Origin: Bacillota bacterium
GTDB lineage: Bacteria > Bacillota > Sulfobacillia > JAJZIM01
Direction: 5' to 3'
NCBI GenBank assembly: GCA_021810565.1
Contig: JAJZIM010000003.1
Span: forward strand, 8,911-72,910
Length of the DNA: 64,000 nt
Made by a program: the position numbers and the translations under genes
The notes under the pieces: model-generated
Databases searched by the model: none
What the model was told of the DNA's origin: nothing
What the model saw: the letters and a program-made list of their open reading frames with translations, nothing else
Part shown: one piece after another, positions 5,944 through 58,093 of the stretch
Position numbering within the stretch: the stretch's first letter is position 1
Layout: each line of letters begins with the position of its first letter

Positions 5944-7014
5944 ATGAAAGCACCATCGGTAAACGGCGGCGAAGACCGCTCAAAGTGGCTCTTCGGTTTC
6001 CTAGGCGGCCTGATCGGCGGCATCGGCGCCGTGGCTGTCGCCGTCGTCCTGACGCCATATCTTCGCGGAACCACGGGCGCGGCGACTACCGGAGGGGCTG
6101 CGGGACTGGTGGCGGCAGTCTTCGGCGGGCTTGCCGCGCTGCTCGCGGTGGGCATAGCGGTGGTGGTGGCGATCCAGTGGATATTTTTAGACGAACGCGT
6201 CAAGGTAGCGATAACACGGCAGTCGGAGAAAATTGCCAGGGATATGGATGCGAAGGTGAATAGCGCAGTGCGTGGTATGGGAGAGTTCGTGTTGGCTTGG
6301 CAAGGTTTAGTACAGACGGAATGGGATGAATCTGGAATAAAAAAAGCGCTACAGCATTATCCACCCATTCCAAACGCCGCGGCTTTAACGGCTATGCATT
6401 TCATAAAGTTGGCTTATGACTACAAGAGACACATAAAGCAAGTCCAAAAGGGACAATATGCAGAAATTGCAACGAACTTAGCTGAATACTGGGCGGACGA
6501 AGCCATTCACTCGGTGGACAGCCACGATCCCGGGTATCCCGAGTATGTCAAGGCCTGTGTCCTGTCGCTGCGCAAAGAGCCTACGTCGGCAATGAACTAC
6601 CTGCGCCAAGCATTCAAGAAAAATCCCGGCTACACGGAGGAAATCATGTCTGACGAAGAATTATGGAACATAATTTTCGGCATGACACGTGGGGAGCAGG
6701 ACATAATAAAGCGCGTACTATCGCTATTCCGGCTGGAGCTACCAATAGACTCGGAGATACGCAATCACGCGGAGAACAGGGATCAGATGCAACGCTCGTA
6801 TTACTATGCCGTAAATAAGGAGACGGGCGATTCAGGAACAATATATATAGAGGGGATTCCTTCCGCAAACAAGTGGTCATATTTGGGATTCACTATTGAT
6901 GACCAATATAATAGCGACAATGTTGACGAGGTGTTGTCATATGCTTCAGATAAGTACATTATCACGAGAATAAAGCCGCACGAGGAATATGCCGCTCTGC
7001 ATTACGGCAAATAA
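5944..7014 (+). CDS. membrane-anchored protein of unknown function (two Gly/Ala-rich TM helices + AT-rich C-terminal domain)
   Basis: Internal ATG 'MKAPSVNGGEDRSKWLFGFLGGLIGGIGAVAVAVVLTPYL...GLVAAVFGGLAALLAVGIAVVVAIQWIF', followed by a ~270 aa hydrophilic domain encoded by AT-rich DNA. I recognised no family motif. Confidence 0.55.
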   Translation: MKAPSVNGGEDRSKWLFGFLGGLIGGIGAVAVAVVLTPYLRGTTGAATTGGAAGLVAAVFGGLAALLAVGIAVVVAIQWIFLDERVKVAITRQSEKIARDMDAKVNSAVRGMGEFVLAWQGLVQTEWDESGIKKALQHYPPIPNAAALTAMHFIKLAYDYKRHIKQVQKGQYAEIATNLAEYWADEAIHSVDSHDPGYPEYVKACVLSLRKEPTSAMNYLRQAFKKNPGYTEEIMSDEELWNIIFGMTRGEQDIIKRVLSLFRLELPIDSEIRNHAENRDQMQRSYYYAVNKETGDSGTIYIEGIPSANKWSYLGFTIDDQYNSDNVDEVLSYASDKYIITRIKPHEEYAALHYGK

Positions 7015-51312: not shown

Positions 51313-51729
51313 TCAGCCCAGAAGCCGCTGGTGCTCCTTCAGCATGCAGCGGTCCATGACCACCGTCAGCCCGTGGTCGGCGGCCCAGCGGGCGGCCGCC
51401 TCGTTCACCACGCCCTCCTGCAGCCACAGGGCGCGGGCGCCGATGCGCACCGCCGCCTCGGCCACGGGCAGGGCCTGGGCCGGGTTGCGGAACACGTCCA
51501 CCACGTCCACCGGCTCGGGGATCTCCTCCAGGGAGGACCAGGCCCGCTCCCCCAGGACCTCGGCCACGGCGGGGCGCACGGGGATGATCCGGTAGCCGTG
51601 GGCCTGGAGGTAGCGGGCCACGCCGTGGCTGGGCCGCGCCGCATTGGGGGACAGGCCCACCACGGCCACGGTGCGCCAGGAGGCCAGGAGGGAGCGCAGC
51701 TGCTCGTCGGAGGGAACGAACTCTTCCAT
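51313..51729 (-). CDS. CoA-binding domain protein (YccU-like)
   Basis: 'LRSLLASWRTVAVVGLSPNAARPSHGVARYLQAHGYRIIPVRP'. Only the last 138 codons of ORF 51313..52167 are used. Confidence 0.7.
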   Translation of the reverse strand: MEEFVPSDEQLRSLLASWRTVAVVGLSPNAARPSHGVARYLQAHGYRIIPVRPAVAEVLGERAWSSLEEIPEPVDVVDVFRNPAQALPVAEAAVRIGARALWLQEGVVNEAAARWAADHGLTVVMDRCMLKEHQRLLG

Positions 51730-54779: not shown

Positions 54780-55178
54780 TCAGCTCCCGGCCTCCAGGGC
54801 GTCCAGGGCCCGGCGCAGGCGGGTCTTGGCCTCCGCGGCGATGGGGGTGAGGGCGGCGTTGCCCACCAGGCCCAAGGCCGTCTCGGGGTCCAGGGCGGCC
54901 ACCACCGAGTGGTCGCCCTCCTCGTAGACGATGACGTTGCAGGGCAAAAGCAGCCCGATCTCCTCCTCGGCCTGGAAGGCCCGGTGCGCCAGTTGGGGGT
55001 TGCAGGCCCCCAGGATGACGTAGCGCTTGAACTTTGCCCCCAGCTTCTCCTTTAGGGTCTTTTGCACGTCGATCTCCGTCAGCACCCCGAAGCCTTGGCC
55101 CTTGAGGGCCTCCCGCGCCCTGGCGACGGCGGCGTCGTAGGGTGCCTGCAGGCGCACGGCCATGCCGTAGGCGGCCAT
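54780..55178 (-). CDS. DUF302 domain protein
   Basis: 'FGVLTEIDVQKTLKEKLGAKFKRYVILGACNPQLAHRA'. Confidence 0.65.
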   Translation of the reverse strand: MAAYGMAVRLQAPYDAAVARAREALKGQGFGVLTEIDVQKTLKEKLGAKFKRYVILGACNPQLAHRAFQAEEEIGLLLPCNVIVYEEGDHSVVAALDPETALGLVGNAALTPIAAEAKTRLRRALDALEAGS

Positions 55179-55192
55179 TCTCCCCGCCTCCC

Positions 55193-55546
55193 TCAGTCCG
55201 CCGCGTAGCTGGCGGCGCCAGCTCCGGTGGCCACGGGGCCGCGCCAGGCCAGCATGCCGCCCAGGACGTTCTTCACCCGCGGGAAGCCTTGCCGATGGAG
55301 GAACTCCGCCGCCTGGGCGCTGCGGTTGCCCGAGTGGCAGATCAGGTACAGCTCCTCCTCGCGGTCCAGCTCATGGGCGCGGTGGGGGAGCTCGTGCAGG
55401 GGCAAAAGCTCCGCCTGGGGCACCCGAAAACGGTGGTACTCGTGGGGCTGGCGCACGTCGATCAGCCGGATCTGGTGCCCGGCGCGCAGCCGCTCGAAGA
55501 CATGGTCCGCAGTGACGTTCTCGAAGGCAGAACCGTATCCCATCAT
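55193..55546 (-). CDS. rhodanese-like domain protein (single-domain sulfurtransferase)
   Basis: 'IRLIDVRQPHEY...LYLICHSGNRSAQAAEFLHRQGF' with an active-site Cys. Confidence 0.75.
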   Translation of the reverse strand: MMGYGSAFENVTADHVFERLRAGHQIRLIDVRQPHEYHRFRVPQAELLPLHELPHRAHELDREEELYLICHSGNRSAQAAEFLHRQGFPRVKNVLGGMLAWRGPVATGAGAASYAAD

Positions 55547-55881
55547 CGTGCCGCGACCTCCTCGCTCAAGAATTCCTGCACCTTGCGCCGCAAGGCGTCC
55601 TGGGGCAGGTAGCCCACCACCCGCTGGGCCAGCCGGCCGTCCCGGAAAAAGCCCAGGGTGGGGATGCTCATGACCCCGTAGTCCATGGCCGTGCGCGGAC
55701 TCTCGTCCACGTTGACCTTGACCACGTCCAGCGATCCGGCGAACTCCTGCGCCACGGCCTCCACCACCGGAGCCACCATGCGGCAGGGTCCGCACCAGGG
55801 AGCCCAGAAGTCCACCAAGACCGGTCGCGCGGCGCTCAGCACCTGGGCGTCGAAATCGGCGTCGCTCACCTCTCTAGCCAC
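55543..55881 (-). CDS. trxA: thioredoxin
   Basis: 'VLVDFWAPWCGPCRMVAPVVE...GVMSIPTLGFF'. Confidence 0.9.
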   Translation of the reverse strand: MAREVSDADFDAQVLSAARPVLVDFWAPWCGPCRMVAPVVEAVAQEFAGSLDVVKVNVDESPRTAMDYGVMSIPTLGFFRDGRLAQRVVGYLPQDALRRKVQEFLSEEVAAR

Positions 55882-56052: not shown

Positions 56053-56925
56053 CTACTGGGTCACGACCACCGTGCGGCTGGTGCCGTCCCACTGCACCTG
56101 GTCCCCCAGGACCTGGCTCAAGAAGTACAGGGGCACGATGGTGCGGCTGTCCACGATGGTGGGGGCCGCGTCCAGGGTCACGCCGCTGCCGTCGACGACG
56201 GCGGTGCGGCTGTCGATGGTGAGTTGGACCGTGCCGCCGGCGGTGGCGATGGTCACGGTGCGGGTGGCCCCGTTCCAGCTGACCTGGGCGCCCAGGGTCT
56301 GCTCCACGACCGCCAGGGGCACCATGGTGCGGCTGTGTTCGATGAAGGGGGCCACCGGGAAGCTGGGCTGGCTACCCTGGACGAACACCTTGATCCCGGT
56401 CTGGCCCTGCTGGTTCAGCAGGCCACCCACCTGGGCGTAGCTGGAAAGGGGCAGGTAGGGGTTGTTGGCCAGGGCCTGCTCCAGACTGCTCAATGCCGCG
56501 GCGTCCTCGCCCAGCTTGAGCAGCGCCTCGCCCTTGAGCTGCCAGGCGGCGAAGTTGTGCGGATGGGCCGTCAGCACGCCCTGCGCCTGCTGGAGCGCCG
56601 CGGCGGCGTCGCCGGAGTCCAGCTCGGAAAGCAGGTTCTCCACGGTGCTGCCCGTGGCAGCGGTGAACTCCTGGTTCTCGTGGGCCTCCTTGGCCGCCCA
56701 TCCTTGCTCGATGCCCGCGTTGCCGTAGGTTTGGCCGGTGACCGAGGCGTGCTCGTTAACCGCCGGCTCCTGGGGCTCGTAGACCTGGTGGGAGACGGTG
56801 GCGGGCGGGCCGCCCGGCGCATGGCCGGAGCCCATGCCTCCCCCGTCGTCGGCCCACGCCGTGGCCGCCGTTCCCAGGGTCAGGGCGAGGGTCAGGAGCA
56901 GGGGGACCAAACGCGTCTTCCTCAT
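56053..56925 (-). CDS. secreted protein with TPR-like region and two copper-amine-oxidase-N-terminal-like (stalk) domains
   Basis: Signal peptide 'LLLTLALTLGTAATAWA'. 'TMVPLAVVEQTLGAQVSWNGATRTVTI' and 'TIVPLYFLSQVLGDQVQWDGTSRTVVV'. Confidence 0.6.
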   Translation of the reverse strand: MRKTRLVPLLLTLALTLGTAATAWADDGGGMGSGHAPGGPPATVSHQVYEPQEPAVNEHASVTGQTYGNAGIEQGWAAKEAHENQEFTAATGSTVENLLSELDSGDAAAALQQAQGVLTAHPHNFAAWQLKGEALLKLGEDAAALSSLEQALANNPYLPLSSYAQVGGLLNQQGQTGIKVFVQGSQPSFPVAPFIEHSRTMVPLAVVEQTLGAQVSWNGATRTVTIATAGGTVQLTIDSRTAVVDGSGVTLDAAPTIVDSRTIVPLYFLSQVLGDQVQWDGTSRTVVVTQ

Positions 56926-57196
56926 CTCGTTTCGACCTCCTCGCGGGTCCGCCGCGACGGTCGCAGGGCCCGGCAACCGGCTGTCCTGGCCGCGCCGCGG
57001 CTTTAGACCCATGGCTTTGCGTCCCCGCCTTTCGGCGGGTTTGCCCTTGGCAGGCTCACCTGATATTTCGTGCGCGACCGGCGAATTTGGGTGGGTGGCG
57101 CCGGGACGGTCGAAATCCGATCTTGACAAAAACCGCGGCGCAGGGCAGAATAAGCGGTAGCATACCGCGTAGGGTATATGAAGGAGGATTCTCGGG

Positions 57197-57394
57197 ATGC
57201 CCAGCTATGATTTTCAGTGCCGGGAGTGCGGCGAGCGCTTCGACGTGCGCTGCGCCTGGCAGGACAAGGCCCAGGTGCGCTGCCCCAAATGCGGGGGGGA
57301 GGAACTGCAGGAGATCTTCAGCGGCTTCACCTTCCTCACCGCCGGCGGCGGCGGGGGAGGCGGCTGCGCCCCCAGTTCCAGCGGCTTCAGCTGA
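57197..57394 (+). CDS. FmdB-family zinc-ribbon putative regulatory protein
   Basis: 'MPSYDFQCRECGERFDV...RCPKCGGEE'. Confidence 0.75.
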   Translation: MPSYDFQCRECGERFDVRCAWQDKAQVRCPKCGGEELQEIFSGFTFLTAGGGGGGGCAPSSSGFS

Positions 57395-57452
57395 GGCTAA
57401 ACGGGCGCGGCCGGCGGCCGCGGCAAACACAGGAAGAAGGAAGGTGCGGCGG

Positions 57453-57791
57453 ATGGCGGAAGTGGAGGTCCGGGCCACGGTGACCGTGGTGGGGTCGCGG
57501 CTGGAGGACAGCTGCAGTGCCGGGGGGTGAGGCCCCACGCAATCTCTGGAGGAGATTACGCTGTTCTACCGGCGCTTTTTGCGCCAGGACTTCGGCGACC
57601 AGGTGCTCATGGAGTACGTGGACGTGGACGACGAGCGGCTCGGCGACTACCCGCAGGCCAAGGAGGCCCTGCAGCAGGGGCGCTACCTGCCCCTGGTGCT
57701 GATCAACGGGGCGGTGACCTTCGAGGGGGGCCTGCCCTGGCGGTACCTGCTGGAGGAGCTGGAGCAGATGGGCATCAGGCGGGTGGGCTAG
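57453..57791 (+). CDS. YuzD/DUF1462-like thioredoxin-fold small protein interrupted by an in-frame TGA (57528-57530)
   Basis: The same frame reads 'MAEVEVRATVTVVGSRLEDSCSAGG*GPTQSLEEITLFYRRFLRQDFGDQVLMEYVDVDDERLGDYPQAKEALQQGRYLPLVLINGAVTFEGGLPWRYLLEELEQMGI'. Family assignment is from memory and tentative. Confidence 0.4.
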
Positions 57792-57820
57792 TCGGACCGC
57801 CGGGTCCGCGGGAGAGGATT

Positions 57821-58093
57821 TTGAAGTTGTACCTCAAAGACACCAAGGACCTGGTGGAGCGCATGAAGCGCATCGAGGGGCAGGCCCGGGGTATCCAGCG
57901 GATGATTGACGAGCAGCAGGAATGCGAGGCCATCGTCATCCAGCTGGCGGCCATGAAGGCGGCCCTGAACAAGGTGGCCATGGTGGTGATCGGCTGCCAC
58001 ATGGCCGAGCAGCTGCGGGGGGAGGAGGCCGACCAGGCGGCGGAGGACCAGGCCGTGGACTCGGCCATCCGCATCTTCACCAAGTTCTCATGA
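57821..58093 (+). CDS. CsoR/RcnR-family metal-sensing transcriptional repressor
   Basis: 'MIDEQQECEAIVIQLAAMKAALNKVAMVVIGCHMAEQL' (C...H...C ligand pattern). TTG start. Confidence 0.7.
   Translation: MKLYLKDTKDLVERMKRIEGQARGIQRMIDEQQECEAIVIQLAAMKAALNKVAMVVIGCHMAEQLRGEEADQAAEDQAVDSAIRIFTKFS

Follow-up and report, generated by a model that had tools for sequence, protein, structure and literature searches.

In the generic arrangement of bacterial selenocysteine (Sec) genes, for which fdhF of E. coli is the paradigm and the model of Zhang and Gladyshev the description (PMC13188914), an in-frame UGA codon is followed immediately 3', inside the open reading frame (ORF), by a stem-loop with a G-G/U at the start of a small loop, the bacterial selenocysteine insertion sequence (bSECIS), and the family has Cys homologues. 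The gene considered here, at positions 57453-57791 of the forward strand of a 64,000-nucleotide stretch of bacterial DNA (the window), shares all of these features, and the single TGA codon that interrupts its reading frame very probably encodes Sec. It differs from the generic case in a spacing at the allowed minimum (16 nt), in a hairpin of only 6-7 base pairs (bp) and in the lack of a lower stem, and the binding of SelB is putative. The public record of the locus is contig JAPTXS010000058.1 of a Thermaerobacter sp. metagenome-assembled genome (MAG), GCA_028063925.1.

On the protein side, the closest described systems have a thioredoxin fold, and proteins of this fold carry redox or metal-binding cysteines in the loop between the first strand and the first helix (β1-α1). 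The YuzD/DUF1462 family (PF07315, structure 1XG8) resembles the window protein in being a small (~105-110 amino acids), stand-alone thioredoxin fold with β1-α1 cysteines and a conserved LP...(I)NGE hairpin of strands β3 and β4. YuzD proteins differ in having a CxxC motif after β1 (CASC in 1XG8), where the window protein has C-S-A-G-G-U (C-x4-U) and its family Gly/Cys-rich variants with U; they are not known as selenoproteins, and the gene context here consists of CsoR/FmdB genes or ars operons. ArsD likewise combines a thioredoxin fold with a similar size, and sister branches of the window family adjoin arsR and acr3. We take the As(III) site of ArsD to be Cys12-Cys13-Cys18; its Cys13-x4-Cys18 spacing then presumably equals that of C21-x4-U26 in the window protein (S20-C21-x4-U26), so that the 13/18 spacing would be kept and the first Cys replaced. 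In contrast to ArsD, no arsA partner is seen, and the copy in the window is associated with a CsoR-family repressor instead of ars genes. A further comparison is offered by Sec.1 and Sec.2 of Brachyspira, selenoproteins (labelled 'redox-active disulfide protein 2') of the thioredoxin-like PF13192/TIGR00412 type (Santesmasses et al. 2017, PMC5330540), which share the small thioredoxin fold, an N-terminal Sec/Cys, a truncated or missed NCBI annotation and a SECIS hairpin just 3' of the codon. They belong to another domain family, and Sec position, motifs and taxa differ; the window protein matches neither PF13192 nor TIGR00412, and PF13192 is touched by only 2 of 58 family members (E ~8e-4).

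A conserved reading frame around an in-frame TGA

The frame translates to MAEVEVRATVTVVGSRLEDSCSAGG*GPTQSLEEITLFYRRFLRQDFGDQ...EQMGIRRVG*, with the TGA at 57528-57530 as its lone internal stop; another excerpt of the peptide behind the TGA reads GPTQSLEEITLFYRRFLRQDFGDQVLMEYVDVDD. An earlier note on this DNA had pointed out the in-frame TGA, correctly, and the peptide it quoted agrees with the translation except that the last four residues, RRVG, were omitted. The window has a GC content of 67%, and real genes have a GC content of ~0.9 at third codon positions; in 23 of the 25 codons that precede the TGA the third base is G or C, as in the real genes of this genome. The Shine-Dalgarno (SD) sequence of the proposed start (Table 1) has a counterpart in the orthologous locus L003, which reads AGGAGGTG at the equivalent position.

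The commonest genuine stop codon in the window is itself TGA, which terminates 11 of the 23 confident ORFs. The code is thus the standard one, a reassignment as in code 4/25 is rejected, and any recoding must be site-specific. Other TGA-bridged ORFs in the window hold no recoding candidate: the scan gave only the TGA at 51313-51315 on the reverse strand, and this was rejected as a recoding site, being the stop of a CoA_binding_2 gene whose frame is shared by the PMT_2 gene after it.

An exhaustive HMMER search with the 86 residues behind the TGA as query returned 47 relatives, and a profile search 97. The subfamily of the window gene comprises eight independent members (the window, L003, L004, L008, L009/L010, L032, L033 and L034) from genomes of 39-67% GC. 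In all eight a TGA occupies the same codon and the sequence to either side is conserved as coding, as the earlier note had supposed for the segment behind the TGA; they share the motif (V/I)xVxGSR....C-x3/4-U-(G/A/V)-P. The suggestion that SCSAGG-U is a redox motif fits this pattern, Cys21 being conserved in the subfamily as the Cys of C-x3/4-U. The window gene and L003 (81% identical) are separated by 43 synonymous and 21 non-synonymous codon differences, which flank the retained TGA on both sides, the 25 codons before the TGA included. To judge from these codon differences, purifying selection evidently acts on both sides of the TGA, and the 43 synonymous and 21 non-synonymous differences around a retained TGA effectively exclude a nonsense pseudogene, an assembly error and the annotated short ORF.

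Most relatives in the databases are proteins of 60-90 amino acids that start at differing internal positions. In every case for which the DNA was fetched, the missing N-terminal segment lies upstream in frame, with a TGA between the two parts. Among full-length homologues, P0013 (locus L011) has Cys at the TGA column (LCFSGG-C-GP, codon TGC), as has P0007 (CSS-C-GPTKS). A third kind of record reads 'W' at this column, for example the full-length P0004 (DSCSKGG-W-GPSQS) and further proteins with 'W' in an N-terminal GGWGP motif. In the two cases checked against the DNA, P0004/L004 and P0106/L031, the stored DNA has TGA where the protein reads 'W', and under table 11 loci of this type fail to yield the query protein when translated; the 'W' is evidently a TGA read under a Mycoplasma-type code (TGA = Trp) by metagenome gene callers on short contigs. 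We note that GGWGP also occurs in P0047, P0072, P0091, P0092, P0126, P0133 and P0135, probably through the same artefact. Calling TGA as Trp is thus a systematic artefact that conceals selenoproteins, and every public record found for the family is either truncated or renders the UGA as Trp.

Aligned at the level of DNA, the orthologues have Cys or TGA at the column and a continuous frame, and none has an intact shorter gene. A scan of genome contigs and metagenome contigs with window-subfamily patterns gave no relatives; members of this close subfamily are rare and known here from ENA/Logan contigs only. A word-index protein search with the read-through window sequence returned only the truncated self match.

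A SECIS-like hairpin behind the TGA

The earlier note had described a 6-bp hairpin, AAUCUC-UGGAG-GAGAUU, 10 nt after the TGA, and it is present exactly so. It consists of the 5' arm AATCTC (57541-57546), the loop TGGAG (57547-57551) and the 3' arm GAGATT (57552-57557), with a distance of 16 nt from UGA to loop. The bSECIS criteria (PMC13188914, Fig. 2A) are a loop of 3-9 nt, a stem of at least 4 bp, a G in the first two loop positions, a spacing of 16-37 nt and a minimum free energy (MFE) of -7.5 or below. The window site passes with a 6-bp stem, a 5-nt loop of the form N-G-G-N-N, a spacing of 16 and an MFE of -8.0 to -11.6 kcal/mol.

The offset of the hairpin, 10 nt after the UGA, is identical in 8/8 orthologues, and its 6-bp helix is paired in 47 of 48 stem cells across the eight; in controls with the 3' partner shifted by 1-3 columns, only 27-56% of the cells pair. 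Two stem pairs change in a compensatory manner. Pair 1 occurs as A-U in four orthologues, as G-C in two and as U-A in one; for pair 2, five have A-U, two G-U and one G-C. The covariation score is 0.298 (0.133 for shuffles), a value attained by 1 of 500 shuffles. The loop is N-G-G-N-N throughout, its GG invariant in all eight, and fits the bSECIS consensus N1-G-[G/U]-N-N2. The arms in the window also carry rare codons (CAA 9.9%, TCT 1.8% and ATT 5.1% of their synonymous families in the genome), and the TCT codon for Ser is invariant in 8/8 orthologues despite their very different codon biases, which points to selection at the RNA level. In the Cys homologue L011 the E-E-I residues are kept, the 5' arm is absent and no hairpin is found at that spacing. 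The proposal of Sec recoding with a minimal SECIS element is thus well supported by the TGA in all eight orthologues, by the Cys homologues and by a covarying hairpin that agrees with the bSECIS model.

Fold and protein family

Taken singly, the window protein reaches neither of the two relevant gathering cut-offs: it scores 14.3 bits against DUF1462/YuzD (PF07315; E=0.05, cut-off 25) and 13.9 bits against ArsD (PF06953; E=0.07, cut-off 27), and phmmer finds no match to it among the PDB sequences. The family as a whole goes further. PF07315 is matched by 15 of 58 members at E<=0.01 (best 1.9e-8), and the family profile aligns over nearly its full length with 1XG8, the YuzD-family protein SA0798 of S. 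aureus (E=3e-8), and weakly with the thioredoxins MTH895 and MJ0307 (1NHO/1FO5; E ~1e-4 to 6e-4). The assignment to YuzD/DUF1462 made in the earlier note therefore holds at the level of the superfamily, the window protein itself remaining below the PF07315 cut-off.

An AlphaFold 2 model of the Cys homologue P0013, with a predicted local distance difference test score of 81.7, has the order β1-loop-α1-β2-α2-β3-β4-α3, which is thioredoxin-like (βαβ-α-ββα, ~100 residues), and places the C-x4-C pair in the β1-α1 loop. The best natural matches of this model in Foldseek are ArsD (3MWH and 3KGK, E ~2e-3) and 1XG8 (template modelling scores 0.57/0.67, root-mean-square deviation 3.2), the latter superposing best among natural structures. 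An hhalign comparison of profiles with ArsD covers 32 columns of the β3-β4 region only, at a probability of 60%; the alignment of CCSTGVCG in ArsD with SCSAGGUG is therefore without statistical support and was rejected. On the strength of sequence profiles and the predicted model, the product is best described as a thioredoxin-fold protein, a divergent relative of YuzD/DUF1462 and not a core member, with a more distant kinship to ArsD. The resemblance to ArsD is structural and contextual and is not demonstrable by sequence.

Weighing the alternatives

We consider it very probable that the TGA of this gene is a Sec codon and that the UGA is decoded as Sec. Several points weigh against this reading or the role attached to it. 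The bSECIS criteria are also passed by 21% of all TGA triplets in the window, the hairpin is small and its folding stability relative to shuffles is not significant (z = -1.38 and +0.35); the hairpin alone is no more than chance, and its significance comes from the comparative data. Even there, the inner four pairs are invariant and coincide with conserved codons (S-L/Q ... E-I); part of the conservation could thus lie at the level of the protein, and these pairs are neutral on structure. What computation establishes is the recoding signature and the fold family; actual incorporation of selenium and the biochemical role are inferences. No selA, selB, selC or selD gene turned up in the window (64 kb) or among the fetched loci, on which tblastn was run with SelA, SelB and SelD of E. 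coli as queries and ARAGORN was used for tRNA; according to ARAGORN the window is without tRNA genes. For the window MAG, support for the Sec trait comes from the literature and only for the genus: Peng et al. 2016 (Table S2, PMC5029168) give Thermaerobacter marianensis and T. subterraneus as Sec-utilizing. Finally, the role discussed below is read from the gene neighbourhood, and the contexts differ by branch, with CsoR/FmdB genes here and ars operons elsewhere.

The UGA might instead be read, with stimulation by the hairpin, by a near-cognate Trp, Cys or Arg tRNA or by a suppressor tRNA, to give a full-length protein that lacks selenium. The comparative data show that the frame is read through, not which residue is inserted, and no Sec machinery was found in the window and the fetched loci. 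The homologues, however, carry Cys and not Trp or Arg at the UGA column, the hairpin fits the SelB-type model with its G-G loop at canonical spacing, and the carrier lineages are known Sec users: besides the genus Thermaerobacter, they include Peptococcaceae and relatives of Desulfotomaculum and Pelotomaculum, and many Desulfotomaculum species as well as Pelotomaculum thermopropionicum appear as Sec-utilizing in the same Table S2 (PMC5029168). Decoding by anything other than Sec is on this evidence very unlikely.

It is extremely unlikely that the public annotation is correct and that a 70-residue protein starts at TTG 57579, with the TGA as the genuine end of an unrelated ORF upstream and the continuity of the frame as a coincidence. 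NCBI does call exactly this ORF (P0001), and many database homologues are likewise 60-90 residues long, but these short proteins start at non-homologous positions, each with the conserved N-terminal segment and the TGA upstream. Inspection of the sequence before TTG 57579 finds no SD, and a product of 70 residues would lose strand β1 and the greater part of helix α1 from its thioredoxin fold. The G/C-ending codons before the TGA (23/25) and a protein sequence conserved there (VxVxGSRxxxxC..GG) over genomes of 39-67% GC also speak against it. The earlier note had kept this start as an alternative, together with a simple nonsense mutation, and neither stands up to the orthologues, which retain the TGA and the N-terminal segment under selection on both sides. 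For a nonsense mutation or an assembly error that turned a Cys-type YuzD-like gene into a pseudogene, one may cite that TGA is a single base away from TGC/TGT and that the source is a MAG. Set against this are the TGA in more than 25 independently assembled sequences from differing samples and taxa, the purifying selection already described, and identities of 34-81% among the loci, which exclude copies of a single contaminant; the chance that the gene is a pseudogene is next to negligible.

The wider family and its place among known selenoproteins

A Sec codon in this gene is also in keeping with the wider family. A genome scan with a profile of the sister branch gave 16 loci. In 14 of them the same loop, rich in Gly and Cys, contains an in-frame TGA, and the other two are all-Cys. 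The set includes Peptococcaceae BRH_c4b and BRH_c8a, Sporotomaculum syntrophicum FB, Pelotomaculum terephthalicicum JT, Desulfoscipio geothermicus, Desulfotomaculum sp. and Thermacetogeniaceae. Typical motifs with TGA are SGG-U-GCGP, GGG-U-CS and GSC-U-GPSPEAACCGP; the L031 branch has SGG-U-GPS with TGA. Cys counterparts are found here too: L026 has TGT (Cys) at the UGA position, and the GGCG-U-GSGCGP of the L029/L030 branch corresponds to GGCG-C-GSGCGP in P0056. Beyond the subfamily, at least 17 further family loci have a TGA. The bSECIS test is passed in the MFE structure by 16 of 21 family UGA sites, compared with the 21% background, and several of the remaining sites form the hairpin as a suboptimal fold.

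Neither the catalogue of 87 prokaryotic selenoprotein families from 2022 (PMC9312934, Table 1) nor that of 119 families from 2026 (PMC13188914, Table 1) has an entry for YuzD, DUF1462 or ArsD. These names are not mentioned in the BSepDB and deep-Sep papers, and a full-text literature search found no paper that ties selenocysteine to YuzD, DUF1462 or ArsD. NCBIfam release 20, in which most catalogued selenoprotein families have models, gave no match for six family members entered with Cys in place of Sec. Among catalogued families the nearest is that of the thioredoxin-like Sec.1/Sec.2 of Brachyspira, a different domain family. It is probable that the genes described here form an unrecognised selenoprotein family, which uses ordinary bacterial Sec recoding and no new mechanism, and which could sit under a 'hypothetical protein' label. 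One family would thereby be added to the prokaryotic selenoproteome. Its genes are an instance of systematic mis-annotation of selenoproteins, and recognising the family would correct dozens of annotations. It would further provide a functional handle for the uncharacterised YuzD/DUF1462 superfamily, in which the Sec/Cys position marks the reactive residue, and would connect the use of selenium with stress operons of the arsenic and CsoR types.

Pelotomaculum terephthalicicum JT (contigs 20 and 6) has three paralogues with TGA, L017 (GGC-U-DPSPEAACCGP), L018 (DSC-U-NPSPEAACCGP) and L024 (GSC-U-GPSPEAACCGP), two of which adjoin acr3. The frame of L024 stops early, after ...RFHGGF, and this copy may be damaged. 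Directly 3' of the L017 paralogue, at 6370-6660 on the forward strand of that locus, lies an ORF of 97 amino acids that matches positions 3-84 of 272 of the arsenite methyltransferase model NF008823. ArsM is a known selenoprotein family, and the ORF may be a second Sec-truncated gene in that arsR-acr3 operon.

Gene neighbourhood and possible role

The features of the locus are collected in Table 1. The gene is the second of a three-gene unit, between the gene for an FmdB zinc ribbon and that for a CsoR-family repressor. The earlier note had called the neighbourhood redox-themed, citing trxA-rhodanese-DUF302, the CsoR repressor, the FmdB zinc ribbon and a Trx/NifU operon, and Pfam matches bear this out.

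Table 1. Features of the proposed selenoprotein locus, with positions in the window
Feature	Position	Strand	Remarks
Promoter-like site TTGACA-17-CAGAAT	57123..57151	+	Upstream of the three-gene unit; from a consensus scan, 1 found vs 0.2 expected; weak
FmdB-family zinc-ribbon gene, Cys form, first of the unit	57197..57394	+	TIGR02605, 61.6 bits (cut-off 31.3); PF09723
Shine-Dalgarno sequence GAAGGTG	57440..57446	+	Spacing of 6 nt to ATG 57453; strong; read from the sequence
Proposed full selenoprotein coding sequence	57453..57791	+	112 codons and TAG stop; YuzD/DUF1462-like thioredoxin fold; motif C21-S-A-G-G-U26-G-P
UGA codon 26, proposed Sec codon	57528..57530	+	TGA at the matching codon in L003, L004, L008, L009/L010, L032, L033, L034; TGC in L011/P0013
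SECIS-like hairpin AAUCUC-UGGAG-GAGAUU	57541..57557	+	Agrees with the bSECIS constraints; conserved in 8/8 orthologues
Publicly annotated ORF	57579..57791	+	70 amino acids, TTG start; the truncated C-terminal part; P0001 'hypothetical protein M0031_10770 [Thermaerobacter sp.]'
CsoR/RcnR-family repressor gene, last of the unit	57827..58093	+	PF02583; TTG start; SD GGGAGAGGA at 57810-57818

Parts of this unit recur in the subfamily. A CsoR-family gene follows the orthologues in L003 (650-916) and L008 (863-1138) and overlaps their stop codon. An FmdB gene lies 5' of the orthologue in L003 (1-213) and directly 3' of it, translationally coupled, in L034 (519-728). The FmdB protein of the window is all-Cys, and its Gly-rich C-terminal tail ends in GGC...SGFS; elsewhere, FmdB figures among the listed selenoprotein families (U/CxxU). 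Against NCBIfam, the repressor of the window gives sub-threshold matches to FrmR, RicR and RcnR. The linked repressors of the window, L003 and L008 share Cys33 and Gly-Cys57-His58, have Gln or Ser at the fourth ligand position and lack an N-terminal His/Pro. This fourth position is that of CsoR Cys65 and RcnR His64, by alignment with reference sequences whose known ligand positions align correctly. All three repressors stay below threshold for FrmR, RicR and RcnR alike, and the CsoR-family repressors linked to the selenoprotein may form a distinct sensor subclass.

In L033 the neighbours are instead CcdA/DsbD_TM, a TlpA-like redoxin and DUF302. A DUF302 gene is found near the selenoprotein gene twice, at 3267-3656 of L033 and in the trxA-rhodanese-DUF302 cluster of the window (54780-55881, reverse strand), ~1.6-2.7 kb upstream and on the opposite strand; an association of DUF302 with sulfur or thiol trafficking is possible. 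In the Peptococcaceae branch (L014, L017, L021 and L024) the family gene stands directly beside arsR and a gene for ACR3 arsenite efflux, these ACR3 neighbours scoring 456-466 bits against TIGR00832 (cut-off 283). ArsP-type permeases adjoin the family gene in L014 and L025, and in L029 it lies near ArsR and an ACR3-like gene.

The arsR-acr3 operons of the sister branches suggest a role in metal(loid) or thiol handling. Soft metal(loid) or thiol stress would be the theme common to these neighbourhoods, and a function of that kind is plausible, without being the most probable outcome. For the window gene we envisage that translation starts at ATG 57453 and that, when UGA 57528 is reached, the hairpin recruits SelB-GTP-Sec-tRNA(Sec) and Sec is inserted as residue 26. 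The product would be a thioredoxin-like selenoprotein of 112 residues with Cys21 and Sec26 (C-x4-U) in the β1-α1 loop, presumably co-transcribed with the genes for the FmdB zinc ribbon and the CsoR-family repressor. A soft metal(loid), reactive sulfur or electrophile species is the probable ligand of the selenol/thiol pair, which might instead cycle via a selenenylsulfide. Synthesis of the selenoprotein might be induced when the repressor senses such a stress, which would give the protein an ArsD-like or thiol-oxidoreductase-like role under a co-transcribed sensor. Tentatively, the gene would be the first example of a family absent from the catalogues, thioredoxin-fold proteins like YuzD/ArsD that contain Sec and have a 'GG-U-G' motif. 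The selenol and a nearby Cys would here be a high-affinity ligand for a soft metal(loid) such as As(III) or Cu(I), and the protein a selenium-based metallochaperone or buffer. The accompanying metal sensors would vary by lineage, with CsoR and FmdB in Thermaerobacter relatives and ArsR-ACR3 in Peptococcaceae/Desulfotomaculia. We regard this fuller proposal as a working possibility somewhat short of an even chance.

Upstream of the unit, the reverse strand carries at 56969-57055 a riboswitch of the c-di-GMP-I class (RF01051, 77.7 bits, E=1.4e-13), in the leader of a divergent gene at about 56053-56925 (reverse strand) that encodes TPR and Cu_amine_oxidN1 domains. The riboswitch leader shares the intergenic region 57056-57196 with the promoter-like site of the selenoprotein operon.

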